Positions 139 to 46,761 of a DNA stretch of 64,000 nt are shown one piece after another. The notes beneath the pieces are model-generated. The model saw only the letters and a list, made by a program, of their open reading frames with translations. It did not search any database and was not told the DNA's origin. Each line of letters begins with the position of its first letter. Within the stretch, counting starts at the first letter, position 1. The translations under genes and the position numbers were made by a program. The DNA is from a virus (taxonomy: Duplodnaviria > Caudoviricetes): the IMG/VR virus record IMGVR_UViG_3300028591_005215, positions 32,001-96,000 of that record; one strand, written 5' to 3'.

Positions 139-228
139 TTTGGCAGTTTGGAAACAATTTAATATATTTGTCTTAGGAAAAATAATATACAATAAAAAGC
201 CTACCTAATAAAAATAGGTAGGTTTTTT
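139..228 (+). promoter_or_regulatory. Bacteroidetes-type promoter (TTTG 139-142, TATATTTG 163-170) followed directly by a terminator hairpin (194-228); copy 1
   Basis: -33/-7 elements 20 nt apart; hairpin aaaaagcctaccta/taggtaggtttttt; near-identical unit at 1077-1170. Confidence 0.6.
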
Positions 229-323
229 GTTATAAGACGTTTTATATTATTTGCTGATACCTTATACTATAATAGCAAAATAAAGCCCTATATCCAAAGG
301 AATAGGGCTTAAATTCAATTTTA

Positions 324-749
324 TTAATAAATTCGTGGTTCTCCACCATTCATATAGTAAGATAAACCGTTTATTTCATAGATAGGTTGATAAAAAGGCA
401 TAAAGTTACCAATATTCATAAACCCAATAAATTTAAATAATTTGTGTGGGTTCATAGGTGTAAGCTCTTCACCTTCACCGTTATAACCGATAGCTTTTAA
501 CTCTGTATCACCCCACAAACAATTTTTACGCTTTAAATTTTTAGACGTTAAAAAGTGTTTAATAAGGTAATTAAGACCTTTTTCAGCTTGTTCGTCAGTA
601 ACAAACACATCATTTTCCCCAATAGGTGAAAAATCAATATTTTCACCACGGTTTAAACGACTCTTAAGTAAGTTAATATCACGCTCACTGATAGTCTCTT
701 TTGCTACTGCTTCACTGATAACTATTTCACTTGCTCTTTTCTTTGCCAT
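324..749 (-). CDS. hypothetical protein (probable early gene)
   Basis: 141-aa ORF with an upstream promoter-like module and a downstream hairpin at about 281-311. Confidence 0.75.
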   Translation of the reverse strand: MAKKRASEIVISEAVAKETISERDINLLKSRLNRGENIDFSPIGENDVFVTDEQAEKGLNYLIKHFLTSKNLKRKNCLWGDTELKAIGYNGEGEELTPMNPHKLFKFIGFMNIGNFMPFYQPIYEINGLSYYMNGGEPRIY

Positions 750-848
750 AATAGTTTAATTTTAAAATGTTTATAACTTAATTGTGATAGGAATATAATA
801 CTTTATTTTTATTCTTGCAAATTTTTAATGAACTTTTTTTGAAGTTTT

Positions 849-953
849 TTACTCTTCTAAATCTTTAAGTTCTTTTTCCCAATCAACATCTGACTCGTAT
901 ACAAGACTACAAGCTAAAACTATTAACGCAACAATAATGAAAATTCCAAACAT
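849..953 (-). CDS. 34-aa membrane peptide (MFGIFIIVALIVLACSLVYESDVDWEKELKDLEE), below the ORF-track cutoff
   Basis: Translated by hand: hydrophobic N-half, acidic C-half; promoter-like module upstream at about 1000-1050. Confidence 0.5.
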   Translation of the reverse strand: MFGIFIIVALIVLACSLVYESDVDWEKELKDLEE

Positions 954-1076
954 ATTTTTTTCCTTTCTATTTAATTAATATTGTTATTTCTTTTAACGAC
1001 TGCAATATAACACTTTACTTTTGAATATGCAAGCTTTTAGGCAACTTTTTTTTATTTTTTTTTTCTTGCGATTTTG

Positions 1077-1170
1077 TTTGGTAGTTTGGAAAGAATTTAT
1101 TATATTTGTTTTAGGAAAAGAAATACATACATAAAAGAAAAGGCTATCTATTTTGTTAGATAACCTTTTC
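1077..1170 (+). promoter_or_regulatory. Bacteroidetes-type promoter (TTTG 1077-1080, TATATTTG 1101-1108) plus terminator hairpin (1138-1170); copy 2
   Basis: Direct repeat of 136-180 (TTGTTTGGyAGTTTGGAAAsAATTTAwTATATTTGTyTTAGGAAA). Confidence 0.6.
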
Positions 1171-6623: not shown

Positions 6624-9600
6624 TTAATTATCATTACCACCTAAGAATGGTGTGCTTGTTGATGATGGATAGAATTGATTATGAATTATGTCATACATTC
6701 CATATACATTATCTGAATCACGCTTAACAGGTTTCATATTTAAGGTTGGGGTATCATTACCATTTATGTACAACTTAAATGAATAGAATTTACCACGATA
6801 AATCGGATATGATACAGTATTTTTATTACCAGCACTAAGTAAAGTTAAAGTGTTAGTGCCATTAGAGAATGAAACATAGTTTGAATCTAAAGCATCCCAA
6901 TGTTTAGTTGCAACACTTTCGTTAACTTTCAAACCGCCATCTTTAGTAGACCAATCAAATTCATATGAAACATTTATTTTTGTGTCAGCACTTAAGGTTA
7001 CTTTCTGATTTTGTAAATTTTCTCTTTTGTTACCGATGGTACCGCCATTACCATATAATCCTCTTTGATAAAATCCTAAAGTACAGAATGCGTTACCGTT
7101 ATGATTCAAAATTTGTACAAAATCTTCTTCAGTATCATCTATTGCTGACATAGAAACTTCTGCTTCAAATTTAACTTTATGAGTTTCTGACGAGAATGGG
7201 TTTATACCACAAATCTTAGCTACATTTTCACCATTATTACCTGCTGCTGTTGCTGATACAGTGTTCATAACCCAACCAACATCAGTATAAGTTTCAATGT
7301 TTGATACTACAATATCAACAGTCTTATCTTTAGCGTTTGTATGAGCCTTAACTGTAATAGTTTGGTTCTCTACATTTTCGTTAACTGTAATGTTGCCATT
7401 TTGGTCAATTGTAGCATATTCAGCGCCACTAATAATGCTAAATTGTATTTGTTCATTAGCCGTTACTGGTGTAATATTAGATATAGTTACATTACCGCTC
7501 TTATTAATAGTTTGTGGGGCTGACAATGTAAAGTCTTGCACGTATACTGTTTGGTCATAACCACCGCTGAAAGCAGTAGTAATAGATGGATAGAATTGTC
7601 CACTTAAATTACTATACATACCATACACATTATCTGATTTTCTTAAAGCTGCTCGTAAATCAAATTTTAATGTATTACCTTCATAAGCTTGTATATAATA
7701 TATTTGGCCGTTAAACGTATCACCAATGAATCTAGGAATTGCATAAAAACGTTGCGTTCCAATTGGGCTTAAACTGTCAAAACTTTTTGAAACTACACCT
7801 AAATTATTTACGTTTAGTGTTAATGTTCCTGCTTGTGTACTGCTAGAACTATTGTTCCCGAAATTACTTGTTGCTTCAATTTCGTAAACTGTATTAGGCT
7901 CAATTGTTAATGAATAGGTCAACCCACTATATGTGTTATTAGCTCCATCACGTTCCTCAATAGATATGCCATTTGAATTTATGTAAATAGAAAAATATAC
8001 ACTATTATGTGAGATGTCACCAGTACAAGGTGCAGTAAAATAAGTTGTACCTGTTGGTACGGCACTGCCAGTTTTTATCTTCAATTTAAATGTATATACT
8101 TCGCATTGATTAAGTTTAGATTCATAATAGTCAACGTAGCCTAATGCAGATTTCTGACTTCCGCTACCTTCTTGCTTTATCCAATTAACAAATTCAACAT
8201 CTTCTTTGTATTGAACCATCACAGTTTTTGTAGCTGTAGCGTGATAGCTACTACTAACGCAAGCAACTGTTACATTTGGTTTATAATAGTTAATCATACC
8301 ACTAGCAGTAGTTTGATTAGATAGCCCTAATTTTTTAGGTGTTAGCAGTCCTTCACTTGTTAAAGTTGCATAGTTAGAATCGTTAGTACCACTTAAAATC
8401 CATCTGTATTTTTCAGTATAATTGCTTGGCTCTATTGTAGCTGTATATTGTTTTGAAGTACCAATCGCTTCAGAATCGCCACTAATGGTAATAGCCGAAA
8501 TAGGGATAACTGTTGGATGATTCGCTTCTTCCAAAGTAGTTTTTAATTGAGGGACAATTTGTGGCATTTGGAGGAAATGAATACCATCATTACCTTCATA
8601 AACGTAAGCTAAATCCTTTTCAAAATAGTCCATATTAGAATACCCTAAATTAGAACCATTTTGTATTTCTACTGAACGTGTCCAACCATTAATACCATCA
8701 TTACTAACCCATAATGACATATTCATACGTTTATTATATGTTTCAACGGTTGCATTCATATTTGTATTATAGTCAAAAGACATTACATACATATTTTCAA
8801 TTTTATCAATGTCAGCTTGGCATTCAAGCTGTCTTGGGTCAAAATCATTGCTAACTGCTGTAAACGTGTCATTGTCAAAATCATATGTATAGCAATTCCT
8901 TTTATATGATGGTGTTGCATTTTTGTCATTGCTTCTTGCGTTCAAATATAGTTTTCCATCATTGCCTTCAAAGATAGCAACCTCATTATCACCAGCGTGT
9001 GGGGTAGTATTTGAATACGTCCAATCACCACCAACACGTTTATAAATTAAGCCACTATACCAATTATTATCAGTTTTAGTAGCCATAGCTGGCAAAACCA
9101 ATGTACCATCACTCATTTGAATACCATTTGTTGCAGCAACCCAAGAGCATTTAAATTTAGTTGAATTCCACTTATCTTTTGTTGATATTGGGTTAGACCA
9201 TGTTTTTCCATCATCATCAGAATACATGTATAAAGAATCACCTTCTTCTGTTGTAGCTGAGACTGCTTTTGCATGATTTGTTGACATATCTTTACGGTAA
9301 ACCAATACCCAAAGATAAATCCTACCTTTAACACCATGCACACCAGTTCTATCAATGACGAACATAGGGTTCATATATTTTAAGCTAGCACTTTCATCAT
9401 ATGCTAATAAAGTTCTATATTCCCAAGTTGTTGCAGAATAATTCCTACGAGCAAACAATATACTTGTATCAGTTTCATCTGCCACAGCTGGGCGGTCTTC
9501 GCAAGTTGCAATATAGTTTCCTTTATTTGTAATAGCTACTGAAGGAATACGTCTAAAAGACCCTGTGCCACTACCAGTATCAACACCACTTTTGAAAATT

Positions 9601-10574
9601 ACGTTATCTGCAATTTGATAATCACTATTATCTGTGTTAAATTCATCTAAAGTAACTGTGCTAATTGATGTATAAATCGAATTAACTTCAATTTGAATAA
9701 AAGGTAGAATTCTTATATCATTAGTGCTACTTGTATTGTTAACAGTCCAAGATTCTATTGTGTCATTAGCACCTTGAATATAATATATAGCTTCAGACGA
9801 AAATAATGCTGCATTATTTAATGCTGTCTGCTTTAATGTAGAAGTCCAATAACCTGAAGAAGCTAAAGTTGCAGAACTACCTAAAGTTTCTAAGGCAGCT
9901 TCTAAAATAGAATTGGATTTTATGCCATTTAAACGTGCACTTTCAAATTCACCAGCGCTAGGTATATACCATTCACTACTAAAATTATTTTTTAGTAATT
10001 CAAGTGCTGGGAATTTACTAAAATCACTAATAGAATCTAGCCATGCTTGAGTGTTAGACATTCCACCAAAGTCTTTTATTAATATAGGTATAGCAATACT
10101 TGGACTTATACTAGTACTAGTTATGTTTGCAGCAGCAATTTGCCCTTCAACACCATTTGTTTCTCCAGTTATCCCATAAAAGGTTAAATTAGGATTTCCT
10201 GAATTAACATCTTGTAAGGTACTGAAGTTTACATGCTGTGTAAAAGCATTATTTGTTAATGCCTTTACTGAAGCAAACATTGGCTTATTTGTCATTTCAT
10301 TAACACCAACAAAGATACCGATAGCATCAGCCTTTTGCGACTCTGTAATTGAAGCTTGAGATACAACTGTCTTCTTGTCTGAAAGCAAGAAAGAACCTAT
10401 TTTCAATGCTGTATAAACAGGGATTTCCTTTCCGCCTTCTTCTTGTGTTCCGACATTGAAGTAAACGGTATCACCTTGCCTAATCCAAGCAATTCCAGGC
10501 ACAATCATGTTTTCTTGTCCGCCTGCATCCATAAAATCTTGCAGGGTTTCGTAAGCTTTTAAATATTTTGCCAT
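6624..10574 (-). CDS. multidomain, probably virion-associated protein: DUF1566/C-type-lectin-like domain + GH33-type sialidase + two (Ig-like + beta-sandwich) modules
   Basis: FRRIP motif, Asp boxes YSDDDGKTWS and VSNDGINGWT, NE..., LNARS, KRMN, GYS catalytic set; WYIPSAGE..YWTST; internal repeat SDNVYGMY...QFYPS. Confidence 0.8.
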   Translation of the reverse strand: MAKYLKAYETLQDFMDAGGQENMIVPGIAWIRQGDTVYFNVGTQEEGGKEIPVYTALKIGSFLLSDKKTVVSQASITESQKADAIGIFVGVNEMTNKPMFASVKALTNNAFTQHVNFSTLQDVNSGNPNLTFYGITGETNGVEGQIAAANITSTSISPSIAIPILIKDFGGMSNTQAWLDSISDFSKFPALELLKNNFSSEWYIPSAGEFESARLNGIKSNSILEAALETLGSSATLASSGYWTSTLKQTALNNAALFSSEAIYYIQGANDTIESWTVNNTSSTNDIRILPFIQIEVNSIYTSISTVTLDEFNTDNSDYQIADNVIFKSGVDTGSGTGSFRRIPSVAITNKGNYIATCEDRPAVADETDTSILFARRNYSATTWEYRTLLAYDESASLKYMNPMFVIDRTGVHGVKGRIYLWVLVYRKDMSTNHAKAVSATTEEGDSLYMYSDDDGKTWSNPISTKDKWNSTKFKCSWVAATNGIQMSDGTLVLPAMATKTDNNWYSGLIYKRVGGDWTYSNTTPHAGDNEVAIFEGNDGKLYLNARSNDKNATPSYKRNCYTYDFDNDTFTAVSNDFDPRQLECQADIDKIENMYVMSFDYNTNMNATVETYNKRMNMSLWVSNDGINGWTRSVEIQNGSNLGYSNMDYFEKDLAYVYEGNDGIHFLQMPQIVPQLKTTLEEANHPTVIPISAITISGDSEAIGTSKQYTATIEPSNYTEKYRWILSGTNDSNYATLTSEGLLTPKKLGLSNQTTASGMINYYKPNVTVACVSSSYHATATKTVMVQYKEDVEFVNWIKQEGSGSQKSALGYVDYYESKLNQCEVYTFKLKIKTGSAVPTGTTYFTAPCTGDISHNSVYFSIYINSNGISIEERDGANNTYSGLTYSLTIEPNTVYEIEATSNFGNNSSSSTQAGTLTLNVNNLGVVSKSFDSLSPIGTQRFYAIPRFIGDTFNGQIYYIQAYEGNTLKFDLRAALRKSDNVYGMYSNLSGQFYPSITTAFSGGYDQTVYVQDFTLSAPQTINKSGNVTISNITPVTANEQIQFSIISGAEYATIDQNGNITVNENVENQTITVKAHTNAKDKTVDIVVSNIETYTDVGWVMNTVSATAAGNNGENVAKICGINPFSSETHKVKFEAEVSMSAIDDTEEDFVQILNHNGNAFCTLGFYQRGLYGNGGTIGNKRENLQNQKVTLSADTKINVSYEFDWSTKDGGLKVNESVATKHWDALDSNYVSFSNGTNTLTLLSAGNKNTVSYPIYRGKFYSFKLYINGNDTPTLNMKPVKRDSDNVYGMYDIIHNQFYPSSTSTPFLGGNDN

Positions 10575-12072: not shown

Positions 12073-12141
12073 AGATAGATATTTAATAAAATAAAAGAAG
12101 AAATGAATATATTTATAGTATATTCATTTTTTTTATCATAT

Positions 12142-13200
12142 ATGAAAAATATTAAAAGTATTATAACTGAAGAAATAAATAAGTTTGTTAATGAGGTTAA
12201 ATACATTGACAATGCTTATGGTAAAGATACGATGCCACCTTTACCTGGCGAAAAACACCCTTATAAAGTTGTCGGCAAAACAAATTGGACTGATAGATAT
12301 GAACAGGAACCTATAAAGAATAGTGATAAGATTAGAGTGTTTCATAAATGTAACATGAACACTGCTATGCAATTTGCTTTATATGGCACAAGTGGTAAAG
12401 TATATGCAAAAAGAGCATTTTCATATGAATCAGGGATGAATCCTAAAGGAATATTTGTAACTACTGATTTTAATGTAGCTAAGAATGGTTCATTTGCTTC
12501 ACACGGTGTGATTATTGAATTTACTGCAAGTGCTACTGACCTTGATACACCTGTTTGGAATGGGCAAGGAACGTATTTTGGGCAAGGAACTCAGCCTATG
12601 CCTTTTGCTAATAAGTCTGAAAGGGATGCACAAAAAAAGAAATATAATGATGATGCAAGGAGTGTAGAAGATGAAAGATATTTTAATTATCAAACTAAAA
12701 AGGACGATGTAATTTCATATGACTATATAAGGAATAGTGATAATCCTGCAATGGCTTATAACATATTTAATAACAACGAACATCAAGCTTTATTCCTTGG
12801 TGATTTGAACCCTAATATGATTAAACGTTTCTGGGTCAAGGAAGAAAACAGTGAACAATACGTACCTTATAAAAGGGTTGACTTCATAAGGAAATTTAAA
12901 GAAAAAGAAAAGGAAGAATATAAACCTGAATATTCTGATATATTTAATCCTAACGATGATTTTTCTTGGAATAAATTAGCTAAATACGAATATAATTTTG
13001 ATAGTTACTACTGCAAGAAAAACAATATATCTTTTGAGGAGTATCTTAATAAAAACTTTAAAGAAATGAAAGATACAATATTATATTATGCTGAAAATAA
13101 TCCTTATGAGTTGAGATATTATTTCTGGCCAAAACAATTGATACAAATTCTTGGTAAAGAAAAATATTTGGAAACGTTTGGTGGCATAATGGGCGTTTAA
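12142..13200 (+). CDS. ART-fold-like protein with head-protein leader (start revised from 12103 to 12142)
   Basis: MKNIKSIITEEINKFVNE; VFH..GIFVTTDFNVAK..VIIEF..EHQALF; ATATTTAT at 12109. Confidence 0.55.
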   Translation: MKNIKSIITEEINKFVNEVKYIDNAYGKDTMPPLPGEKHPYKVVGKTNWTDRYEQEPIKNSDKIRVFHKCNMNTAMQFALYGTSGKVYAKRAFSYESGMNPKGIFVTTDFNVAKNGSFASHGVIIEFTASATDLDTPVWNGQGTYFGQGTQPMPFANKSERDAQKKKYNDDARSVEDERYFNYQTKKDDVISYDYIRNSDNPAMAYNIFNNNEHQALFLGDLNPNMIKRFWVKEENSEQYVPYKRVDFIRKFKEKEKEEYKPEYSDIFNPNDDFSWNKLAKYEYNFDSYYCKKNNISFEEYLNKNFKEMKDTILYYAENNPYELRYYFWPKQLIQILGKEKYLETFGGIMGV

Positions 13201-13205
13201 CGCAT

Positions 13206-13250
13206 AAATTATAAAATCCAGAAAAAAACATTTTCTGGATTTTATAATTT
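13206..13250. terminator. bidirectional terminator between convergent genes
   Basis: aaattataaaatccagaaa/tttctggattttataattt inverted repeat. Confidence 0.7.
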
Positions 13251-13258
13251 ATTTACAC

Positions 13259-13924
13259 TTACCATTTTTTTAATCCGTATAAACAATTTAGTGACCAAAA
13301 TACATATTGCATTGCCATACAATAGTTCTCAGCATTAAACCAAAGAATGATAGACCCAAAGTCAATAAACAACCAATAATACCACGATTCTTTATATCTA
13401 TATATTGATAGAACTTGCGCAATTAGCGCAGGAACTGTTGTAATTGAATCTATAAATGGTTGTGTGTCATTAGTGCATTTAAAGGTTTGCCAAGTAAATA
13501 AAGTACCAAAAAACGCAATAATCAACGAAAAAGTTAATCCTTTATGTGTTAATGACTTTGTTGCAACTTCATTTTCATCCATTTCGTTAATTCTATAATG
13601 TTTAAGCCATATATAAATTCCATATATCATTGTAACAAAATAGAAAGCATTTTCAATTAATTCACCATAGAAAGCTTCTTTCCAAGATAAAATTACGTAA
13701 GTGAATAATTGGATAAAGCCTAAGAAATAGAATGATATTTTCCTTTGAGAACAAAGCACAACTGATAAAACACCAGATAATCCGCTCATTAATGATAAAA
13801 CAGAATTATCAGTTATAACAAACGTTACAATTTGCAATAACAAACCAAAAAGGAGGAACAACACATCAAATGTTGTTCTTCCATTTACAAATTCTTCTTT
13901 TAAGAAGCTATTAATCTTCCCCAT
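13259..13924 (-). CDS. pnuC: PnuC-family nicotinamide riboside transporter
   Basis: Multiple TM helices; PFIDSITT..AQVL...ESWYYW..D and YGLKKW motifs; coupled to nadR. Confidence 0.9.
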   Translation of the reverse strand: MGKINSFLKEEFVNGRTTFDVLFLLFGLLLQIVTFVITDNSVLSLMSGLSGVLSVVLCSQRKISFYFLGFIQLFTYVILSWKEAFYGELIENAFYFVTMIYGIYIWLKHYRINEMDENEVATKSLTHKGLTFSLIIAFFGTLFTWQTFKCTNDTQPFIDSITTVPALIAQVLSIYRYKESWYYWLFIDFGSIILWFNAENYCMAMQYVFWSLNCLYGLKKW

Positions 13925-14999
13925 AAAATGAATTAATATAATCCTTTACTCGGTTAAAATTACCTTCAAAAGTATCATCAAGAATTTCAACTTTTTCCCA
14001 CAACCCAAATTCCTTAATAAATGTGACTAAAATACCAAAGTTTTTACTTCTTTCTTCGATTGAAGATTGCTTCATATATCTTGTACCATCATCGACAAAA
14101 GTGTTCTTAGGTGGTAGTAAAAATATTTTATCCCACTTAATAGAATCTTTCAAAGATAAAGCAAGCGGTTTTAATATTGTTTCAAATTCTTCACTTGTCA
14201 GTTGCATTTCATCATTAGTTGAATAAGCTAAAGCATACATAAGTGTTACGATATTATCAGTATCTGAAATAAACAAGCCACTGTTTGATTTAGTACTTTT
14301 TTCAACCATATCATTCCTTTGACCAATTATAAAATTGGTAAAATCTTTAACAGTTAAATCAGTGTCTAGCATACATTTCTTTTCCATATATTTTCTTCCA
14401 TATTCTTCCGAAAAAGGAATGTTAAAATATGTTGCAATGTCACGGACAAGTGTTGATTTACCTTCTGAAGCTGTGCCTGTAATAAGAATGTTTTTAGTTA
14501 GTGTTTCTCTAAAAGGCGGAAGTATATAGCTCCAATATTTTACAGGATTCTTTCTTATCTTTGTACCACTAATAGGAATTGTCTTTGGTATTACAACGAC
14601 ATTAAATTTGTCAGAAACTTTTTCAATAGATTCTTGGTAGAATTTTTCAGCCAAATAGAAAGTGAAATGTGATTCATCAGTGTATAAATTATGTTTTTTA
14701 AGTTTTCTTTCGACTTCACCAAGCCAAATCTTCCAGTTATTAGGACACATGCTTTCATCAAGTCCTAAATCAGTATCGTTTATTGCATCAATTATGACTT
14801 GTTCATCGTTTTTAAATATTTCTTTTACCTTACAAGTTTTTTGGCTTAAAGAAAGGGTGATTTCTTTAGCCCTTTCTTCGCCTTCATATCCGCAAACAAT
14901 AAGTAAAACCTTATCATTTTCTTTTTTTGCTTTCATGATGCTGTCTAAATGCCCTCTATGCATAGGGCAATACCCACCAAAACAAATACCTACCTTCAT
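13911..14999 (-). CDS. nadR: NadR-like bifunctional NMN adenylyltransferase / ribosylnicotinamide kinase (no HTH repressor domain)
   Basis: GGYCPMHRGH (HxGH), ISGTKIR, Walker A GTASEGKST, EYGR, DTD, DDGTR. Confidence 0.9.
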   Translation of the reverse strand: MKVGICFGGYCPMHRGHLDSIMKAKKENDKVLLIVCGYEGEERAKEITLSLSQKTCKVKEIFKNDEQVIIDAINDTDLGLDESMCPNNWKIWLGEVERKLKKHNLYTDESHFTFYLAEKFYQESIEKVSDKFNVVVIPKTIPISGTKIRKNPVKYWSYILPPFRETLTKNILITGTASEGKSTLVRDIATYFNIPFSEEYGRKYMEKKCMLDTDLTVKDFTNFIIGQRNDMVEKSTKSNSGLFISDTDNIVTLMYALAYSTNDEMQLTSEEFETILKPLALSLKDSIKWDKIFLLPPKNTFVDDGTRYMKQSSIEERSKNFGILVTFIKEFGLWEKVEILDDTFEGNFNRVKDYINSFYGED

Positions 15000-15001
15000 G
15001 C

Positions 15002-17083
15002 TTAGAAATTAATTTTAAATATACCCATCACATTAGTACCTGCAAGTGGGCAGTACAATGTTTCATTACTTGCGCCAACTGCACCTGAGCAGTAATTAGT
15101 ACGATTAAAAATATTGTTAATCTTACCAATAAATTCTAATGCTTTACTGAACTTAATATTGCCATAAAGATTAAAAGTGCAGCTATTAGGGATATAATGT
15201 TCATTTGACATATCCACATACATTTTAGAATAAAAGTTAAAATTCAAACCAACACCATATGTAGGCTTCTCCCAACTCAAGTCAGTATTCCAAATAATAG
15301 ATGGTGAAAGAATAGAATTCATATTATCACCAAAGGTTTCAGTACTTACTTTATTCTTAGATAAAGAGAATGTGTTATTAAAATTTAAGCCATCCCACAC
15401 ATTCCAATATTCACTAACTTCGACACCATATCGTTTACTTGACTTAGCATTTTCATGCTGAGGAAGGCCATTCAAGCCAAACTCACCATTAAGGACAAGT
15501 TCATCCTTAAATTTCATATAGAACAAGTTAACATTAAATTTAAAACCATCAGTAACGTATTCTGTTCCAAGTTCCCAATCATTAGCCTTTTCAGCTTTGC
15601 TTGTTGCAATAGCTGGTGTGCCATCAGCATTATAAGTGATATATTCATTACCGCCAAACATATCACTACGTGTTGGCTCACGATTTACATGGTTAAATCG
15701 TGCATAAGTTTTAAGGTTATATGTTGGGTTATATTCAAACCCTAATCCATAATTAATAAAATTCCACTTACTACCAAGTTCTGAACCAGAATACTTGTTG
15801 TTAGAGAGTAAATCAGTATATGTGAAATTAACGTGGCGATATTGAACGTTAGCATTTACCTTTAAATTAGAAAGAATTTCATAGTTAGCAATTCCAAACA
15901 ACGTTAAATCAAACTTATTTCCGCCATTATCATAATAATCGCCACCATTATATACATTGTCATTAAAGTTTACATTTTCAGATTTATTATCCAAAAAATG
16001 ATGACGATAATAATTATACGCTGATACGCCTGTTGTTACATTAAATTTATCGTAAATAAGTTTTAACGCATTAGATGTACCTTCCATATAATATCGCAAA
16101 CCATAGCTATAAAGTGAGTTAGTTGTACCAATTTTCCATGTAGGGTCAACCATACGTTGCATATAGTTATCTAAATCCATACGATATGAACCTCGCTGCG
16201 TTTGGAAATATAATGCAGATGTCAACAATGCATGGTCTGAAATCCAACCTTTATACTGAAGTTTTAAGAAAGAAGTCCAAAAATCATCAGTATCTTTTTT
16301 GCTATTGCCATTTGCACGTGGGTTACTTGCTAATTCTTCCTTAGAATTAAAAATCCAACCTTGTCCATTACGATGATAGCCAGTTACACCAAAGAAATCA
16401 ATTATGTTTTTATCATTAAACTTGTATGCAGTTTTAAATGCAAAAGAATGTGAATTATTAGAACTATAATTGCGATAACCATCAGTTTGAAAATGTGTTG
16501 ACCTTACGTGTAACCCCCACTTATCTGTTGGTGTCATATTATAAGCAACACTATTTTCAAATGTCTTATCACTTCCATAACCAAATGATGCATACGATTT
16601 ATGTGGTTTAAATACATCAATAGATTCAAAATTTACACCACCAGCTACACCTGCAATACCATTATACATAGATGATGCACCACGTTCAATTTTAACTGAT
16701 TGCATCGAACTTAAAAGGTCAGGTACATTAGCAAAATAAACACCAAAATCTTCAGCTTCATTCCAAGGACATCCATCTAACGTTACATTTATACGTGTTT
16801 GGTCAAGCCCACGAATTCTGAAATATCCATACCCATATTCAGTTCCATTATCAGACATTGAAAAGATAGATGGTAACTTTGCGAAAAGATGAGACGGCTC
16901 TTGCTGCAAGTTAGATTTACTAAGCTCATCACTTGTAATAAGACTACCTGTTAACACATTGTTACGATAAAAAGACGTAACACTAACTTCATCTATGTGA
17001 TGGATTGAATCCATCAATTCTTCATTTGCGAATGCTACGATTGATGAAATAAGCATTGCAAACATTAGAAGTAATTTTTTCAT
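15002..17083 (-). CDS. TonB-dependent outer-membrane receptor
   Basis: Signal peptide, TonB-box-like IDEVSVTS, plug RIRG..RINVTLDG..IERGASS...GGVN, amphipathic beta-strands, C-terminal Phe. Confidence 0.9.
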   Translation of the reverse strand: MKKLLLMFAMLISSIVAFANEELMDSIHHIDEVSVTSFYRNNVLTGSLITSDELSKSNLQQEPSHLFAKLPSIFSMSDNGTEYGYGYFRIRGLDQTRINVTLDGCPWNEAEDFGVYFANVPDLLSSMQSVKIERGASSMYNGIAGVAGGVNFESIDVFKPHKSYASFGYGSDKTFENSVAYNMTPTDKWGLHVRSTHFQTDGYRNYSSNNSHSFAFKTAYKFNDKNIIDFFGVTGYHRNGQGWIFNSKEELASNPRANGNSKKDTDDFWTSFLKLQYKGWISDHALLTSALYFQTQRGSYRMDLDNYMQRMVDPTWKIGTTNSLYSYGLRYYMEGTSNALKLIYDKFNVTTGVSAYNYYRHHFLDNKSENVNFNDNVYNGGDYYDNGGNKFDLTLFGIANYEILSNLKVNANVQYRHVNFTYTDLLSNNKYSGSELGSKWNFINYGLGFEYNPTYNLKTYARFNHVNREPTRSDMFGGNEYITYNADGTPAIATSKAEKANDWELGTEYVTDGFKFNVNLFYMKFKDELVLNGEFGLNGLPQHENAKSSKRYGVEVSEYWNVWDGLNFNNTFSLSKNKVSTETFGDNMNSILSPSIIWNTDLSWEKPTYGVGLNFNFYSKMYVDMSNEHYIPNSCTFNLYGNIKFSKALEFIGKINNIFNRTNYCSGAVGASNETLYCPLAGTNVMGIFKINF

Positions 17084-17120
17084 TATAAAAATATTTCGTT
17101 ATACATTTAATTAACAATGG

Positions 17121-17151
17121 CAAATATAACTATTTATTTTTATACTACAAA
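17121..17151 (-). promoter_or_regulatory. host-type promoter of the TBDR-nadR-pnuC operon
   Basis: TTTG-N19-TATATTTG, 37 nt upstream of the TBDR start. Confidence 0.65.
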
Positions 17152-17189
17152 AGTTCTAATGTTAAAAAAATAAAAAAAGGTAAGTAAAA

Positions 17190-18359
17190 TCACTTACCTT
17201 TTAACTTTTGCATAATACCATTATGGAAAAATATAGAATCACCTCCCATTTCCCTTACAAAATCAGTTAGCATTTTAACGCAATTTAGTGCATCATCACT
17301 TTCTGCATAATCGCAGTTTAATTTTTTAATTCCTTCTTGCGCTTTACTTGAAAGTATATTTAATTCTTCTCCACCTAATTCGTCTGAATATAATTCACTT
17401 GCCATTTGTACCATAGGTGTTGAATAATTTGATAATCCATAATCATCAAGATATTCTTCTGCTATATTAATAGCATCGACTTTAAATGCAAATGGTGCAT
17501 TATCATCCATCATAACATAGTACAGCCCCATAAATAATGCAACATTACAAATACAAGATGTTACTTCTTTACTAAAGTCATATTGATTGGTTTGATTTAT
17601 ATTAATTAAATCACTTGGTAGAATTTGAATTTCATTTCTATTGCTTGCAAAATCTTCCATAGTTCCATAAAAATGGAAAATATCATGATGTTCAGTAAAA
17701 TAATCTTTTATATTATTTAATTCTCTTAATATAACTTTTTTATAAGACCCTCTATCTTTAGCTGATTTTGCTATTAATATATCTATTCTTTTAATATATT
17801 TTTTAGCACCATTTATAAATGGTTTATCTGAAAATATTCTATCCTCATTTTCGATTTGTGCTTGATATTTTAATTGATTAGAACCTTGTAAGTTGTGAAG
17901 ATTTGTCACTGACTTATCCTTCCAAATGTTATTTATCCCATTTAAAGCACTTTGTTTAGTTGAAAACTCTCTTTTATCCCTGTCTTTTAAATCTATATAA
18001 TTATAATCGCTATCATCACCATCTATGGTGTTATATTTATCAGGCCATCTAAAAAAGTTAACAGGTTTTCCCCTATAATTATTAGACAATAAATCACCAT
18101 CAAGTGTTAGTCTTACAAATCCATTTGAAACCCAAGAATTATAACCTATATATGGGTTTGATGCTCTTGTAACTGACATAAAGAATCTTCTTTTTGGCTG
18201 ATTCCAATGTTCACTTTTAGAAACGGCATTTGTTTTTAGAATAAATCTGTCACTCTTAATAATTTTAACAAAATTATCCAACCCTGTAAAATGAAAACAA
18301 ATACTTGAAATGCTTTCATTTAATGTGTTTTTAACTATATCTCCAAAATTAAAGTCCAT
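17190..18359 (-). CDS. ART-fold-like protein with LNE leader
   Basis: IVKNTLNES; FHFT...FMSVTR...RLTLDG...ENEDRI (H-S-ExE pattern); ATATTTAT upstream. Confidence 0.55.
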   Translation of the reverse strand: MDFNFGDIVKNTLNESISSICFHFTGLDNFVKIIKSDRFILKTNAVSKSEHWNQPKRRFFMSVTRASNPYIGYNSWVSNGFVRLTLDGDLLSNNYRGKPVNFFRWPDKYNTIDGDDSDYNYIDLKDRDKREFSTKQSALNGINNIWKDKSVTNLHNLQGSNQLKYQAQIENEDRIFSDKPFINGAKKYIKRIDILIAKSAKDRGSYKKVILRELNNIKDYFTEHHDIFHFYGTMEDFASNRNEIQILPSDLININQTNQYDFSKEVTSCICNVALFMGLYYVMMDDNAPFAFKVDAINIAEEYLDDYGLSNYSTPMVQMASELYSDELGGEELNILSSKAQEGIKKLNCDYAESDDALNCVKMLTDFVREMGGDSIFFHNGIMQKLKGK

Positions 18360-18407: not shown

Positions 18408-19145
18408 CTATATTTCATAGTTTCCATTCATCATAGCTTGTTCGTTTTTTCGTCTTTCAATATGACCTTTTTGGTATACCCTTGTTTCACTAACACAAGA
18501 AATTGCTTGCTTAATTTTTCCACTTTTTAAAAGTTCATAAAATCTTGTTGTTTTTATTCCTCGTTCACCACAATTATAAATTAATGATGCAAGACCATCA
18601 ACAAAATCTTGACTAACATATACTTTATTAGCTGATAATTCATCGGTGATTCTAACAAGTGCAGGATTAATGAATTCATTCATATCTTTTTCAAATAATT
18701 CATCTGCATCTTTTTTTGATATCCAATCACCTACCTTTTTATTTCTCAACCATTTAGGGTCTTTTGAATTTATTTTATGACCCCAGCCTAAAGTTATACC
18801 ATTAACATCCCAATAAGCTCTTCTTGACAATGTTTCAGTACTTTTAATGAATGCCATTCCATTTTTTGAAATGTGAACTTTTTCAACTGTTTTTTGCTTT
18901 TTTACATCGTTATTTTTACCTACATTATTTGCAATACGTTGCTCATTTATTTTTTTATGTTCTTTAGTAATTATTTTAGTCTTAATATACCCTGAAGGCA
19001 TAGGATTCCCAAAGAGCGTTGATGTACCTATGATGCCCCAAAAAAGTAAAGAACATTTTATATTATCTTTAATCTTCTTTTTGGTATTATAAATGCTTAT
19101 TGCTCTTTTAGCAGTAGGATTATTTTTTACTAAATTATTCATCAT
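18408..19145 (-). CDS. phage lysozyme (GH24-like endolysin) with N-terminal hydrophobic segment
   Basis: E-x8-D-x4-T (ETLSRRAYWDVNGIT), GWGH, DGLASLIYNCG, GHIERRKNE. Confidence 0.85.
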   Translation of the reverse strand: MMNNLVKNNPTAKRAISIYNTKKKIKDNIKCSLLFWGIIGTSTLFGNPMPSGYIKTKIITKEHKKINEQRIANNVGKNNDVKKQKTVEKVHISKNGMAFIKSTETLSRRAYWDVNGITLGWGHKINSKDPKWLRNKKVGDWISKKDADELFEKDMNEFINPALVRITDELSANKVYVSQDFVDGLASLIYNCGERGIKTTRFYELLKSGKIKQAISCVSETRVYQKGHIERRKNEQAMMNGNYEI

Positions 19146-19230
19146 GTCAAAAATTGGTTATAACGGCAATATAATATAATTATTCTGTTATTGAAAATAT
19201 TTATAGTTAATAAAAGTTAAATAAAATAAT

Positions 19231-19542
19231 ATGAATTTTTTAAGGTCTTTAATTAACATAAACTCCGCTGATAGTAGCAGAAGTTTTACGCTTGTAGTTT
19301 CAAGTTTTATATCAATTTTAATTGGTGTTATAATTTGTTTTGCAATTGTATGGGATGTAATACACAATGATTACATAAAAACTGATATGGAAAACGTAGG
19401 AATCTTTATGCTATGCCTTGGTGGTTATGTAGCAGGTAGTTCTGTCAGTAAAGTTTTCCCAAATAAACTAAAAGGAACAAAAGCAGGTGAATATATGGAA
19501 GCAATTGAAAATAATGATAAAGAAGAAATTAACCAAAATTAA
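19231..19542 (+). CDS. two-TM membrane protein, holin candidate
   Basis: Two hydrophobic helices, charged C-terminus, next to the lysozyme. Confidence 0.55.
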   Translation: MNFLRSLININSADSSRSFTLVVSSFISILIGVIICFAIVWDVIHNDYIKTDMENVGIFMLCLGGYVAGSSVSKVFPNKLKGTKAGEYMEAIENNDKEEINQN

Positions 19543-20224: not shown

Positions 20225-21940
20225 ATGGCTAATAATATAAATATGTCAGCTAGAGTAAAAATGGTATATAGTGATAAAACAAATGCTATATATTTCAATG
20301 TGCATCTACCTGATGAATCTAAAATACAAGATATAGTAGACATATTAGATGATGAAAATTTTATTGCTAATTTAATGTCAAGCATAGACTCAAAAACAAA
20401 TCAAACTGTTAGGGAAAAAGGTGCTTATGAGGTTATTTTTCCTGCTTTAGATAAAGACGGTAAATATAACATTAAAATACCAAGGGATGGTAAGCCTGAA
20501 GACTGGGTACCTATAGATTGGGAAGAGTTTATGGATGATTATGCAGAGGATAAAAGCATTTTAAATGAATTATTTGACGTTATCGAAAGGTATGGATATA
20601 CTGTTAATCCATATGATAAAAAAATGGCTTCATCTACACCATTTGTTATCGAAAAAACGATAGAAGCGTTAAATCAACCAATTAACGAAAATATGGCTAA
20701 TATGGCCGAAGCTATTTTTGCAAATATTCATAATCCTGAAATACAAAAAATGTTAAATGGAATTAGAATAGCATCAGATTCCGTAGATGATATGCAAAAT
20801 AGCATAGGTAATGCGGAATTTGGTAGTGCTAAGTATATTTTAGCAACGAAAGCGTTAAGTGAAAAAAATACAGTGTGGATTCTTTCTCAATGGTTAACTT
20901 ATAATAGACCAGGTGCGCCAACTTTGATTGCCACATCAAATCAATGGAATGAAATTGGGTGTGAAGTTGTTAACCCAAATTATCCATTAAGAGCACGTAA
21001 GCCATATAGTTATAATGGTAATGAAATGGGTGATGATGAAGCTGAAGCAAAATTAGGTGTTGATAGAGATACAGCGTATAAAATGGATAAAGGTGTTGGA
21101 AAAGCATGGGATAGATTCAGTAGTTTCCAAAGATATAATGATGGGAATTTCACACAAGTTATTTATTGGGACATACAAGATGTACAAGTAGTTGACCAAC
21201 GTCTTTGGCAAGAATTCCAAGAAGATGCCAATATGGAAAATATGTCGCATAAGTTTAATCAAAAAGCGCTTGATTTAATGTCTGATGACGAAAAAAATTC
21301 TATTGGTAATGAAATCAGCACACAGGATGATAATACACAAAACGGCAATGATGATGAAAACATGATAGCTGATAACGCAGTTAACATTGAATTAACAAGA
21401 GAAGCATTATTAGACTTAATAGGTGATAACCCAATATATAGCGACACTGTTAAGCTTATTAAATCACGTCCTGATAATATTAGTGATATATTACGTTCAT
21501 ATTTTATGCACGAACCTAATATTGACCGTGAAAAAAACATTAAATTGAAAAATTCAAAAATTGAAATTTGTAATGGTGCTGTTCAAATGACGTTAAGAAT
21601 TGGTCTTGCAGATGTAAGAAATAAATGGAGAGAAGTAGCTAATAGCTTCAAAGATATACATGAACTTACTGAAATGTATAGTAATGTGGCAAAGGTAATC
21701 AATGCAGTTAAAGCTAAGCAAAAAGAATATGTTATGAAAGAAAATAGGGTGATTAATGAAGGAAATGAATTCACTTTTAACGATTTTTTAAATTGTTTGG
21801 GAATTTCAGAAAATGATTTAGAAAAACAAATTCAACATAATCAACAAATGGCAATGGAACAAAAGCAAATAAAATCCAAATTTTACAAAATGTGGAACAA
21901 AATAATTGAAGCTAACAATTTAAATCATGGGGTTATTTAA
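20225..21940 (+). CDS. hypothetical protein with ArdC-N-like ssDNA-binding domain
   Basis: LSEKNTVWILSQ..PTLIATSNQWNEIGCEV..P...IYWDIQDV resembles the ArdC-N signature; ATATTTAT at 20183. Confidence 0.5.
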   Translation: MANNINMSARVKMVYSDKTNAIYFNVHLPDESKIQDIVDILDDENFIANLMSSIDSKTNQTVREKGAYEVIFPALDKDGKYNIKIPRDGKPEDWVPIDWEEFMDDYAEDKSILNELFDVIERYGYTVNPYDKKMASSTPFVIEKTIEALNQPINENMANMAEAIFANIHNPEIQKMLNGIRIASDSVDDMQNSIGNAEFGSAKYILATKALSEKNTVWILSQWLTYNRPGAPTLIATSNQWNEIGCEVVNPNYPLRARKPYSYNGNEMGDDEAEAKLGVDRDTAYKMDKGVGKAWDRFSSFQRYNDGNFTQVIYWDIQDVQVVDQRLWQEFQEDANMENMSHKFNQKALDLMSDDEKNSIGNEISTQDDNTQNGNDDENMIADNAVNIELTREALLDLIGDNPIYSDTVKLIKSRPDNISDILRSYFMHEPNIDREKNIKLKNSKIEICNGAVQMTLRIGLADVRNKWREVANSFKDIHELTEMYSNVAKVINAVKAKQKEYVMKENRVINEGNEFTFNDFLNCLGISENDLEKQIQHNQQMAMEQKQIKSKFYKMWNKIIEANNLNHGVI

Positions 21941-23312
21941 TAATGTAGTAGAAAACGTATTATGTGAAACTAAAAAGAAAGAAACGTTTAATTATGATTC
22001 CATTCCAGAAAGTGATTTTGTAAATGGCCCTGTGTATGTTTACCATATGACATCAGAAAATAACCTTAAAGGTGGCATTCTTAAATCAGGATGGGAAAGT
22101 TTTTATAATTTGGTTAATTCATATGGCCCTGGTATATATACCACAATATACCCAAGCTTTGACCCAAGAGCTGAAGTTAAAGATGAAAATGGCAATCCAA
22201 ACCCAACATTGGACTATGATGGTGGCACGTCAAGATATAGTGCAAGACGTTGGATTTATGGTGAAAAAGATAACAAAGGTGGTGGACGTGGTAAACCTGC
22301 TGTTATGATTGCTTGTAAAACAATTAATCCAAAACCTTTTTGGAGCTTTGTTATTTTAGATGAAAAAATAGCTAAACAAGTATATAGAAGACATTGGAGG
22401 TTAGAAGACCAACTTAAATTAATATTAGGTGATAAATTATATTCTTATGCCGAAAGAAAATTTGGACATAATTTAATACACCTTTACAATGCAGGAAGGC
22501 GATTAACATATGAAAGGGGTGATGTTGCATATAGCATTGACCATATGCTTTGCAGTGATTTGATGCTTAATAGAAAAATAAAAGGTATTATTTTCCACGG
22601 TCCTGGTGATGGATTTGTTGCAATATTCAGGGACTACAACGCATTACAGCCTTTTGCTGTTAGTGATGATTGTGGACATACATTTAGAGAACTAAATGTT
22701 GAGCATACTTACGAAGAATATAATAATAACAATGTTGACGTTAGAAGTGCTTTAGGTCTTGATAGATTCTTCTTTGTTAAAAAAGACACAATTAAACCTG
22801 AGTATATTGGCAGATTAAAAGGTGTTCCTTTTAAATATCTTAGTAGTGTGTTTTACGGTGATTATGCTATGGTAGGTGATACTGATAATCCGCAAATAAG
22901 AAGAGAAACAATTGGTGGCAGACCTTATAGTTTTATAACAACTGAAAATAAAAATGAATGGAAATGGAACTTTATTTACAAGCCTTTAATTAATTCTTCA
23001 GAAGATTATAATGATATTCTTGTTAGTAAACATATATGGTTTGATACAGTTTCAGAAGTTTGGAATAAGAATACTTGCCTTGTATCTAAAGATAATAAGC
23101 TATATTATATAATAAATAAAAGTGGAACATTCTTCTTATATGATAATAAAGGTATAGAAATAGGCGATTTAGCTAACATAACTGACGCTGATTTAATAAA
23201 CGCAGAAGAAACTAATGATAAGCAAAATGAACCTAAAAATGAGCCCAATAATACTGATAACAAATCAGTTAAGAAAGTAAGACCTAAACGAATATTTGGC
23301 TTAAAAAAATAA
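21927..23312 (+). CDS. ART/PARP-fold-like protein with C-terminal WG-like repeats
   Basis: VYHMT..GILKSG..YGPGIYTT..KGIIFHG..DG; ends KRIFGLKK. Confidence 0.55.
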   Translation: MGLFNNVVENVLCETKKKETFNYDSIPESDFVNGPVYVYHMTSENNLKGGILKSGWESFYNLVNSYGPGIYTTIYPSFDPRAEVKDENGNPNPTLDYDGGTSRYSARRWIYGEKDNKGGGRGKPAVMIACKTINPKPFWSFVILDEKIAKQVYRRHWRLEDQLKLILGDKLYSYAERKFGHNLIHLYNAGRRLTYERGDVAYSIDHMLCSDLMLNRKIKGIIFHGPGDGFVAIFRDYNALQPFAVSDDCGHTFRELNVEHTYEEYNNNNVDVRSALGLDRFFFVKKDTIKPEYIGRLKGVPFKYLSSVFYGDYAMVGDTDNPQIRRETIGGRPYSFITTENKNEWKWNFIYKPLINSSEDYNDILVSKHIWFDTVSEVWNKNTCLVSKDNKLYYIINKSGTFFLYDNKGIEIGDLANITDADLINAEETNDKQNEPKNEPNNTDNKSVKKVRPKRIFGLKK

Positions 23313-43782: not shown

Positions 43783-46761
43783 ATGAAAAAAATAATATTA
43801 AATGAACATAAACTTTTAAATTTAAGAGAAAGTATAATAAACGAGCTTAATTTGAATCCAGAGTCAGACATGGGTTCAAATAATGATGTGTTTTATTTTG
43901 CTTTATATAAAGGTGATATTGCTATATACACAGATGATAACCCATTATCATTAAAAAGCATGTTAAATAGTCATAAGAGCGAATTAAAGGATTATTTAAA
44001 TGATTTAGATGTAGCAATTGAAAATCATGATATTGAAAATTATACAAAAATATTAGGCTCTAATTTCCCAAGACTTGTAACAGGCTGTTTCTATGGTAAT
44101 ACTTTAGAAATCACGCCTAATAGCACATATAATGTTTTAAACTCTACTGAACTCTATTCATTAAGTAAAATGTTTAGTTTAGATTACGTAAATGTTTATT
44201 ATGGGTCTAAAAAAATAAAAACTTCACAAATAAATAGAAATATAGAAAAACCAAAATCTTTTTATCATGGTACTACTTTAAAATTTGCAGAAGGAATACT
44301 TAAAAAAGGATTAAGAAGTAACCCTGAAAAAAGTAGATGGGATATTAAGCATAATGATACTGTGTTCATAACATCAAGCTTTGATATTGCAATGGAATAT
44401 GCTTCTATTGTTTCTGGTGATATGCCAATTAATGAAAAAAAATTTTATCCTTGTGTTATAGAATTTGATGGTGATAAACTTGATGAAAATAAATTTGTGT
44501 TTGACTATGATACATATAATTCTTATGCAAATGAAAGATTTGATAATGTGTATAACAACCAAATGGAAAAAAATGGTATAGACTATACTGATTACCATAA
44601 AGCAGATGCTATTGATAAAAAAGAAAACCCTGCTAAATATACAAAAATAGGGTATCGTGGGATTATTCACCCTAATGCTATTAAAAGTATTTGTATAGAC
44701 GGAATGCATGGGAAGGAATTTTATACGCCTCAAGAATATTTTAACAGTAAATATTACCAACTAAAAGAATCTAAACCTGATGGATATATAGGTGCTGAAG
44801 GTGATGGTGGTAGCAATGAATATTTTCATGTAGAACAAAATATTGAAGAAAATCAAGAATCGGAAGTAAAGGCTGATGAAGTAAGCCTTGACTCCTTTAA
44901 AAAAGAAGATACTTTAGCACCTAAAATTTGGAAAGGTGATAAATTAAATTCTAAAGTAAGGCTAAAACTATTAGATATTGCTGATGATTTTTGGGAAACT
45001 GTTAACGTTAATTGGGTTAAAAGAAAAGGTATTATTTTAACAGGTTCAATTTGTAATTACAATTGGTCTAAATTTTCAGACATTGATTTGCACATAATTG
45101 TAGATTTTTCTGAAGTTGATGAAAGGACAAATTTTGTTCAAGAATATTTCAATTCAAAAAAGAATGAATGGAATAATGAACATGAAGGGTTAAAAATTTA
45201 TGGTTTCAATGTTGAAGTATACGTAGAAGATATAAATGCTGAAACTGAATCTGGTGGGTTGTATGATTTGGAAGACAATAATTGGATAAAAAAACCTAAC
45301 CCGAATGATATACATTCCATTGCGCCTGACAGTAAAGAAATTAAACTTAAATCATCAAAAATAATGACTAAAATTGATGATTATATTGATTTAATGAATT
45401 CTACAAATGATGATGCACAACTAAGAAAAATTGGTAAGAAGGCACACAAATTGTTGAATAAGATTAAATCAATGCGTAAATTAGGCTTAAAGCGTGGAGG
45501 TGAAACTGACCCGTATAATATTATATATAAGGTATTAAGGAGAACTGAATATCTTGATAAGCTATGGGATATTTCAAGTAAATTGTATGATAAGCTTAAT
45601 TCTATCACTGAAAGTAGAATAATAAATGAATCTGCTTCAGTAGATTTATCAGAAGTAGGTGAAGTAGAATGGGAATTATCAATTGACCAAGATGATTATA
45701 AAGAATATCTTGAAGAAAATGGACTTGAAAATAGCAATGAAGTTTTAGCTGCGTATGTTAAAAACGAATTCCCTACTTTTGAATTAACATATTATGATAA
45801 TGAAGATTATCATTATTGTGGTGGCGATAGTGTTTATTGGGATGATTTGGTAGATATTTTTGGCGAAGATTGGGCTGAAAAAATGCTTAACACTTTCATA
45901 CAAAAAGGCGAAATAGATAAATACGACTTCTTCTCATACACAGGAAGATTTGAAACTTGCGAAATGTATGAAGATAGCCCTATAGATATTAACAATCCAT
46001 ATGAATTAAATTATCGTGCGTTACAATTATTTAGGCACGGTGGTTATTTTAAAGGCTGTAGGGGCTTTATTTTATCTGATGGTAACATTATATATACCGA
46101 AGGTGAACACAACGAAGTAACACGAATAAATGGTATTGATGATAAATTCCAATTTATTAAACTTGGTAACATTAGAATAATGCCTAATTCTATAGACATT
46201 GGCAGAGAGCCAACTTATGAGCAAAAAGAAGTTCTTAGAAAAGTTATAGCATCTTATTCTGATGAAGAATTATATATGGATGTATACAATGAAAAGGTAG
46301 GCGATGCTGGCGCCAAATATGTATGTCCTGATTGGAGATATGTGATTGGCGAGATAGATAGATTCTATGATAAAGGAATTAAGCCAATGGGTAGAAATGT
46401 CTATGAAAATAAAGGATATGTATTTGAGGAAGTAGTTGCTGATGGCAATTCTGAGCATAACCCATATATTAAAAAATGGAAGCACCAAAAAGATATACTT
46501 AGGAATTATATTATACAAACAGGCGAAATAATGCAAAGCATGGAGAACGGTAAACTTTACAAAGTTTTATATGATAAAGATTTATCTGTGTATTTGGGTG
46601 TTGAATATGCATATTGTATACAATATGACCCTAATAAATTGAAGCCTATAGGCGCAATATATATAAGACCATTAAGTTCTTTTACGTATGTAGTACAAAA
46701 TATTGAATATGACACAAGAGGGCATGATAATATTGAAGGTACTTCTGATGATATTGAATAA
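43783..46761 (+). CDS. polyvalent protein: leader + ART-fold domain + Pol-beta-type nucleotidyltransferase + unknown domains
   Basis: MKKIILNE; FYHGTT..GILKKGL..VFITSSFDIAMEYA; LTGSICNYNWSKFSDIDLH..VEVYVE; internal LKE/IEE/ITE/INE sites. Confidence 0.75.
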   Translation: MKKIILNEHKLLNLRESIINELNLNPESDMGSNNDVFYFALYKGDIAIYTDDNPLSLKSMLNSHKSELKDYLNDLDVAIENHDIENYTKILGSNFPRLVTGCFYGNTLEITPNSTYNVLNSTELYSLSKMFSLDYVNVYYGSKKIKTSQINRNIEKPKSFYHGTTLKFAEGILKKGLRSNPEKSRWDIKHNDTVFITSSFDIAMEYASIVSGDMPINEKKFYPCVIEFDGDKLDENKFVFDYDTYNSYANERFDNVYNNQMEKNGIDYTDYHKADAIDKKENPAKYTKIGYRGIIHPNAIKSICIDGMHGKEFYTPQEYFNSKYYQLKESKPDGYIGAEGDGGSNEYFHVEQNIEENQESEVKADEVSLDSFKKEDTLAPKIWKGDKLNSKVRLKLLDIADDFWETVNVNWVKRKGIILTGSICNYNWSKFSDIDLHIIVDFSEVDERTNFVQEYFNSKKNEWNNEHEGLKIYGFNVEVYVEDINAETESGGLYDLEDNNWIKKPNPNDIHSIAPDSKEIKLKSSKIMTKIDDYIDLMNSTNDDAQLRKIGKKAHKLLNKIKSMRKLGLKRGGETDPYNIIYKVLRRTEYLDKLWDISSKLYDKLNSITESRIINESASVDLSEVGEVEWELSIDQDDYKEYLEENGLENSNEVLAAYVKNEFPTFELTYYDNEDYHYCGGDSVYWDDLVDIFGEDWAEKMLNTFIQKGEIDKYDFFSYTGRFETCEMYEDSPIDINNPYELNYRALQLFRHGGYFKGCRGFILSDGNIIYTEGEHNEVTRINGIDDKFQFIKLGNIRIMPNSIDIGREPTYEQKEVLRKVIASYSDEELYMDVYNEKVGDAGAKYVCPDWRYVIGEIDRFYDKGIKPMGRNVYENKGYVFEEVVADGNSEHNPYIKKWKHQKDILRNYIIQTGEIMQSMENGKLYKVLYDKDLSVYLGVEYAYCIQYDPNKLKPIGAIYIRPLSSFTYVVQNIEYDTRGHDNIEGTSDDIE

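Follow-up and report, generated by a model that had tools for sequence, protein, structure and literature searches.

A jumbo-phage operon linking a TonB-dependent receptor gene to nadR and pnuC, a putative route for NAD+ precursors across both host membranes

The nicotinamide adenine dinucleotide (NAD+) reconstitution pathway NARP3 pairs the transporter PnuC (Bas30_87) with a NadR enzyme (Bas30_86) that lacks a helix-turn-helix (HTH) domain, both from phage TrudiRoth (Sci Adv 2026; PDB 9X6F/9X6H). It imports nicotinamide riboside (NR), makes NAD+ and rescues phages from Sir2-HerA (PMC13464706). NARP1 (Adps-Namat) and NARP2 (Nampt-Nmnat) also rebuild NAD+ in infected cells, and differ in recycling intracellular ADP-ribose or nicotinamide instead of an imported precursor. 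Among the NAD-jumbo phages of the gut, pnuC is present in 68 of 174, nadR occurs in clusters and NR import has been proposed (Microbiome 2024, PMC11662467). Here we analyse a stretch of 64,000 nucleotides of phage DNA (the window; positions 32,001 to 96,000 of IMG/VR record IMGVR_UViG_3300028591_005215) that carries an operon for a TonB-dependent receptor, an HTH-less NadR and a PnuC-family transporter. As in NARP3, the genes are phage-encoded, nadR and pnuC are adjacent in the same order, and the enzyme combines nicotinamide mononucleotide (NMN) adenylyltransferase and ribosylnicotinamide kinase domains. The window differs in its additional outer-membrane receptor gene, its Bacteroidota host and an identity of only about 30%. 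By gene content, the operon is a variant of the published pathway, NARP3 with an outer-membrane receptor. The import-based anti-defence route put forward in the original prediction had already been published as NARP3 (PMC13464706).

Gut huge phages are known to encode 22-stranded outer-membrane proteins, including an expressed TonB receptor of Lak phages to which no ligand was assigned, and NMN transport genes have been noted among the neighbours of such proteins (bioRxiv 10.64898/2026.10.24.761521). A 'SusC' protein of the marine megaphages Mar_Mega_1 and LR745206 was proposed to serve carbohydrate uptake (PMC9723777). The Lak and LR745206 receptors are homologues of the window receptor (38-39% and 30%, respectively), and the LR745206 'SusC' gene, despite the carbohydrate role proposed, has pnuC-nadR directly behind it. 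Neither of these two studies names an NAD-precursor ligand or joins receptor, PnuC and NadR as one route, and the TonB receptor and outer-membrane step seen in the window are unmentioned in PMC11662467. The NARP3 paper does not mention TonB, the outer membrane or Bacteroidota. In the searched literature, with most subscription journals outside its coverage, we found no outer-membrane transporter for an NAD precursor and nothing beyond the cited papers on the combination of receptor, NadR and PnuC. Transport of B3 vitamers and NAD in gut bacteria is poorly known (PMC6593275).

The operon resides in a T4-like jumbo phage whose virus record spans 279,749 bp and is about 80% complete. Phage origin is confirmed by a gp23 major capsid match (E 1.6e-64) and a T4-like terminase, which led us to reject a bacterial contig. 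Open reading frames (ORFs) were read in code 11, since no alternative genetic code clearly raised their coverage. The three genes, all intact (Table 1), are as tightly packed as predicted, with a 2-nt gap between the receptor gene and nadR and a 14-nt overlap between nadR and pnuC. The host-type promoter of the original prediction was recovered as a Bacteroidota sigma-A-type element, TTTG-N19-TAnnTTTG. The window contains 13 copies of this pattern, compared with 3.5 +/- 1.6 in shuffles, and the whole genome 57; the pattern agrees with the published -7 consensus (PMC9723704). It was used in place of a sigma-70 scan, which gave hits at chance level (29 vs 26.9). A stem-loop divides the operon from the upstream gene. 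The terminator predicted at the operon end corresponds to a 22-bp hairpin, probably a bidirectional terminator, although it has no clear U-tail and was not picked up in the terminator scan. Rfam models found no riboswitch in the window, in line with the prediction. Genes of the NARP1 and NARP2 type were sought in the genome, about 80% complete, and neither a Prs/Adps-like nor a NAMPT/NAPRT gene came up, with no match to PF13793 or PF04095. A Bacteroidota host is indicated by the promoters and by homologues in Prevotella phage Lak. Ten rumen RNA runs have 5-27% of sampled words in common with the operon, which is no evidence of expression or habitat. Relative to a 97%-identical relative, the receptor gene, nadR and pnuC show 69/21, 29/11 and 18/11 synonymous/non-synonymous codon changes, respectively. 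Synonymous changes exceed replacements in all three genes, the receptor is under purifying selection, and the three proteins appear functional.

Profile matches bear out the predicted identities of the three proteins. NadR starts directly with its adenylyltransferase domain and thus has no HTH. This domain carries H14xGH17, W89 and W92, and the kinase domain carries a Walker A motif (G175-T182), R202 and D290, the counterpart of D275 in the NARP3 enzyme. NadR matches the solved structures 6GYE (E 8e-54) and 9X6F, the NARP3 enzyme (E 1.5e-21). It is closer to 6GYE and to enzymes of lactic-acid-bacterium phages than to NARP3, from which some pocket residues differ. The PnuC protein scores 132.9 bits on TIGR01528 (cut-off 42.45), matches the solved transporter 4QTN (E 7e-25) and keeps the W181xxW184xxxD188 motif and the gate residues W106/W221.

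The receptor matches Plug (E 4e-10) and TonB-barrel (E 8e-22) profiles. Its structure model comprises a plug and 22 barrel strands (pLDDT 85, pTM 0.86), with a signal-peptide-like N-terminus, a TonB-box-like DEVSV segment (both judged by eye) and a C-terminal Phe. No solved structure was found to match it by sequence. The model superposes on PqqU/YncD, Fiu, FyuA and BtuB with TM-scores of 0.7-0.8 at 12-17% identity, and at this distance the predicted fold points to no ligand. A search of the phage genome, about 80% complete, gave no TonB gene, so host TonB would be required.

The genomic company of the receptor is more informative. We retrieved 566 homologues in one search and 852 representatives at E 1e-30 in another. 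Of 84 non-redundant loci, 78 have a two-domain NadR in the vicinity of the receptor (14/15 from gut phages, 16/17 from other phages and 48/52 from bacteria), and 137 of 140 long NadR copies bear HxGH. The order receptor, nadR, pnuC recurs in rumen and gut jumbo phages, the genes are present also in 635-735-kb megaphages, and all 15 Lak phage records hold the three. Related operons on Bacteroidota chromosomes read receptor-pnuC-nadR. Other NAD genes join them: NrtR-NAMPT-receptor-PnuC-NadR-Prs in Mucilaginibacter, NrtR-receptor-NadR in Soonwooa, clusters with NrtR, NADAR, ARH and Tpt1 in Chryseobacterium, and PncB-NadE-receptor-PnuC-NadR in a 735-kb phage. NrtR is an NAD regulator that in Bacteroidetes is able to control pentose genes too. 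The synteny search over phage and host genomes thus showed the receptor travelling with NadR, PnuC and further NAD genes; judged by gene neighbourhood, this is an uncharacterised receptor family tied to NAD genes, and the tie is new here.

Several loci of this family depart from the common layout. In Chryseobacterium (L079-L084), receptor and NadR occur without PnuC among genes for NrtR, NADAR, macrodomain-like, sirtuin-like, ADP-ribosylglycohydrolase and Tpt1 proteins, which implies another inner-membrane route. At L002:6001-7086 the receptor is cut to its N-terminal 268 amino acids and fused to unrelated sequence, followed by pnuC and a gene for an MFS-like transporter with no nadR nearby, apparently a decayed or rearranged cassette. 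A radical-SAM gene, absent from the window operon, lies after or near nadR-pnuC in 29 phage loci of two distant lineages. A match in a 'Clostridia' metagenome-assembled genome (MAG) was set aside as a probably mis-binned phage contig, as it is absent from five relatives of the genus.

The three genes appear to have different histories. The NadR and PnuC of gut phages nest among two-gene nadR-pnuC cassettes of the Bacillota type and not with those of the Bacteroidota operon. Such cassettes are found in Bacillota and in phages with Shine-Dalgarno-rich, promoter-poor flanks; ten phage contigs with the two genes have no receptor anywhere and mostly lack Bacteroidota promoters. Approximately unbiased (AU) tests rejected a single group of all receptor-linked NadRs (p 7.5e-5) and of all receptor-linked PnuCs (p 0.034), with groups named after the trees were seen and with unrooted trees that include long branches (FastTree and a 44-row quick IQ-TREE without mixture model). 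In its order, receptor-nadR-pnuC, the window operon also departs from the Bacteroidota chromosomal operon. By these affinities the window operon is chimeric. That the receptor keeps company with NadR and PnuC from two different sources, and does so in two gene orders, supports functional coupling over passive co-inheritance. The original prediction had likened the operon to the Bacteroidetes thiamine cassette with its kinase swapped, an idea that fails on two counts: the receptor comes from a separate sister family, NadR-linked in Bacteroidota as well, and the phage NadR and PnuC stem from another lineage.

Our data suggest that the receptor, driven by host TonB, probably takes up NR or a phosphorylated precursor to the periplasm, from where PnuC would pass NR inward for NadR to make NAD+. 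Host RNA polymerase would transcribe the operon from the sigma-A promoter, and host machinery would export the receptor, fold it into the outer membrane and energise it through TonB-ExbBD. The receptor would capture a scarce pyridine riboside, either NR or, as its genomic context also allows, NMN or NAD+, which host periplasmic enzymes would trim to NR. By analogy with the homologues, for which these steps and the anti-defence effect have been demonstrated, NR would cross the inner membrane through PnuC by facilitated diffusion, be trapped by NadR as NMN and be adenylated to NAD+. The result would be an NAD+ supply free of host synthesis, which may offset NAD-depleting defences and feed phage NAD+ users. 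The two-membrane route of the original prediction is thus strengthened on the outer side by the company that the receptor keeps, while the route inside is not new. We further advance, as plausible rather than probable, that a TonB-dependent transporter family is dedicated to NAD precursors (NR, NMN or NAD+), scarce in Bacteroidota chromosomes and common in their giant phages, with this receptor as its first member. Gut jumbo phages would have joined this receptor to a NadR-PnuC pair of the Bacillota-phage type, and infected cells would scavenge pyridine nucleotides from the gut, including those of lysed neighbours, and so outlast NAD-depleting immunity.

The same import chain may, instead of counter-defence, serve general metabolism or phage NAD+-consuming enzymes during a long infection, a reading that overlaps with ours, differs in purpose only and is quite possible, if somewhat doubtful. 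Free-living Bacteroidota hold the same trio under NrtR, gut jumbo phages are rich in genes for NAD synthesis and consumption (PMC11662467), the gene adjoining the window operon has a weak ADP-ribosyltransferase (ART) fold, and NARP3 has not been tested in its native phage (PMC13464706). On the other hand, NARP3 alone rescues T7 and lambda against Sir2-HerA (PMC13464706), and several bacterial copies sit among the ADP-ribose repair genes NADAR, ARH and Tpt1, a context of conflict over NAD+.

A number of observations weigh against the route of NAD-precursor import proposed above. Mapping of the NARP3 residues through the T5-like homologue Bas28 shows that two of the three NR-contact residues of the transporter differ in the window PnuC (N45 to G51, Q94 to M99), and that the enzyme pocket has changed in NadR (K10 to G9, E230 to M231, E80 to D75). 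N180 of the transporter corresponds to D188, within the family motif, and H18, W90 and D275 of the enzyme are kept. In Lak phages the receptor and nadR lie 5-6 kb apart, and a few loci have no NadR near the receptor (L010, L011, L162). Joining the gut-phage receptors to a thiamine pyrophosphate (TPP)-riboswitch-led clade is not rejected by the tree (AU p 0.17). Finally, in two Chitinophagales genomes a NadR-type receptor, the sole family member and without NadR, sits right behind a TPP riboswitch, and thiamine may therefore be within the reach of the family; this arrangement could reflect takeover of a thiamine receptor's place or a switch of specificity.

These last two points lead to the possibility that the receptor carries thiamine, or thiamine and NR, and that NadR-PnuC is an ordinary NARP3. 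The Bacteroidetes thiamine importer OMthi (BT2390)-PnuT-Tnr3 (PMC5613172) resembles the operon in uniting a TonB receptor, a Pnu channel and a trapping kinase. The window differs in its two-domain NadR and in the plug residues E109 and Y116, and searches of the phage for a TPP riboswitch and for a thiamine pyrophosphokinase gave neither. The sister family of our receptor is led by a TPP riboswitch in 27 of 28 loci, where flanks of only about 1.5 kb make the absence of NadR and PnuC a lower bound. From this context it is likely the OMthi thiamine receptor family. It occurs in most of 301 sampled Bacteroidota genomes, in only three of which, the centre genome included, is a NadR-type copy top-scoring (type assigned from genomic context in the 30 best loci). 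The two families have 39 invariant residues in common. One receptor of the window's family (L138) lies 1.6 kb from thiM/thiE-like genes, as judged by eye, and the WxxWxxxD/N motif of the window PnuC ends in D, as it does in PnuT. However, D is also the commonest residue among NadR-linked PnuCs (107/115), a TPP riboswitch is missing from all 32 non-redundant phage loci, and nearly all long NadR copies are two-domain proteins with HxGH.

In a Prevotella MAG and in Dysgonomonas, which hold both receptor types, each type has a genomic context of its own, and the window receptor matches their NadR-linked copies with E 3e-94 and 2e-92, compared with 5e-42 and 1e-37 for the TPP-led copies. E109 and Y116 are of the NadR-linked type, whereas all TPP-led receptors have D and F at these positions. 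An NAD-clade profile from which the gut receptors were left out gives them 498-568 bits, and the TPP profile 379-443. The best trees place the window receptor among NadR-linked receptors, outside the TPP clade, although the AU test does not reject a join with that clade (p 0.17). On balance a thiamine ligand, alone or beside NR, seems unlikely. The two NadR-like neighbours of the sister family are short, kinase-only and without HxGH. TPP-led operons at L056:3952-5011 and L062 combine a Pnu channel with a NadR-like protein of 171-173 aa that has the kinase part alone and is a candidate thiamine kinase.

A receptor that works mainly on the outside of the cell, in superinfection exclusion or receptor masking, or that is carried as a passenger while NR enters by host routes, is likewise unlikely. 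Such a role has been proposed for huge-phage outer-membrane proteins generally (bioRxiv 10.64898/2026.10.24.761521), two-membrane hosts are infected by T5-like phages that have NARP3 but no receptor of this kind, and the receptor drifts away from nadR in some phages. Against this, its plug residues are conserved over 45 relatives, and linkage to NadR/PnuC in 78 of 84 loci, kept through partner replacement and changes of order, is not expected of a decoy.

An NAD-precursor receptor would give a testable ligand to a family now annotated 'iron complex receptor' or 'SusC', and a likely role to a gene of all Lak records and of the largest known phage genomes. If the proposal is true, NAD+ counter-defence would reach beyond the cytoplasm to the surface of the cell, and the supply of B3 vitamers would bear on the balance between phage and host in the rumen and gut. 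The core NadR-PnuC pathway is already published, which limits the surprise.

Table 1 Features of the operon, its borders and related loci (positions in the window unless a locus is named)
Feature	Position	Strand	Basis or remark
ART-fold-like protein, 365 aa, intact, flanking, outside the operon	12103..13200	+	predicted fold
22-bp hairpin between convergent pnuC and ART-like genes	13204..13252	.	z -8.5, -10.5
PnuC-family inner-membrane transporter, 221 aa	13259..13924	-	NMN_transporter, TIGR01528
HTH-less bifunctional NadR, 362 aa	13911..14999	-	CTP_transf_like and AAA_28 profiles
TonB-dependent receptor, 693 aa	15002..17083	-	Plug and TonB-barrel profiles, predicted fold
Bacteroidota sigma-A-type promoter TTTG-N19-TAnnTTTG	17121..17151	-	about 38 nt before receptor start
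Terminator-like stem-loop with U-run, end of upstream gene	17175..17202	-	terminator scan, z -4.6
TPP riboswitches before NadR-type receptor	L128:4743-4836, L147:4727-4820		Chitinophagales MAGs
Radical-SAM neighbour loci	including L014-L021, L027, L030, L035, L036, L158-L160		

The protein encoded next to pnuC (12103-13200) belongs to a large unnamed phage family with 158 homologues and conserved H81, E139 and E226. All 50 fold matches listed for its model are to the ADP-ribosyltransferase family, weakly so (best E 0.0075), and an ART-PolyVal match was obtained for 4 of 47 relatives; the modelled fold makes it a possible NAD+ consumer. The original prediction counted many ART-like proteins in the window. 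That count is only partly borne out: this neighbour has its weak fold match, and three others are candidates by motif or weak match only, 17190-18359 (-), the gene upstream of the operon, whose product gave no named family in an atlas search; 21927-23312 (+); and 43783-46761 (+), with a weak PARP match (E 0.022) and a nucleotidyltransferase domain.

Beyond the upstream gene, an endolysin gene (Phage_lysozyme; 18408-19542, -) with a small membrane protein encoded upstream of it likely forms a lysis module beside the operon. At 52445-55522 (+), the T4-like terminase large subunit contains an intein and a LAGLIDADG endonuclease. The gene at 6624-10574 (-) encodes a protein of 1316 aa that combines Ig-like repeats with a BNR/sialidase-like domain (E 7e-15) and probably serves the virion as an adhesin or is a glycosidase. 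In G000:C1:14000-33100 (window 139-1108 and upstream), repeated small genes follow about 14 near-identical promoters of the Bacteroidota type, all on one strand, an arrangement that looks like an early host-takeover array.

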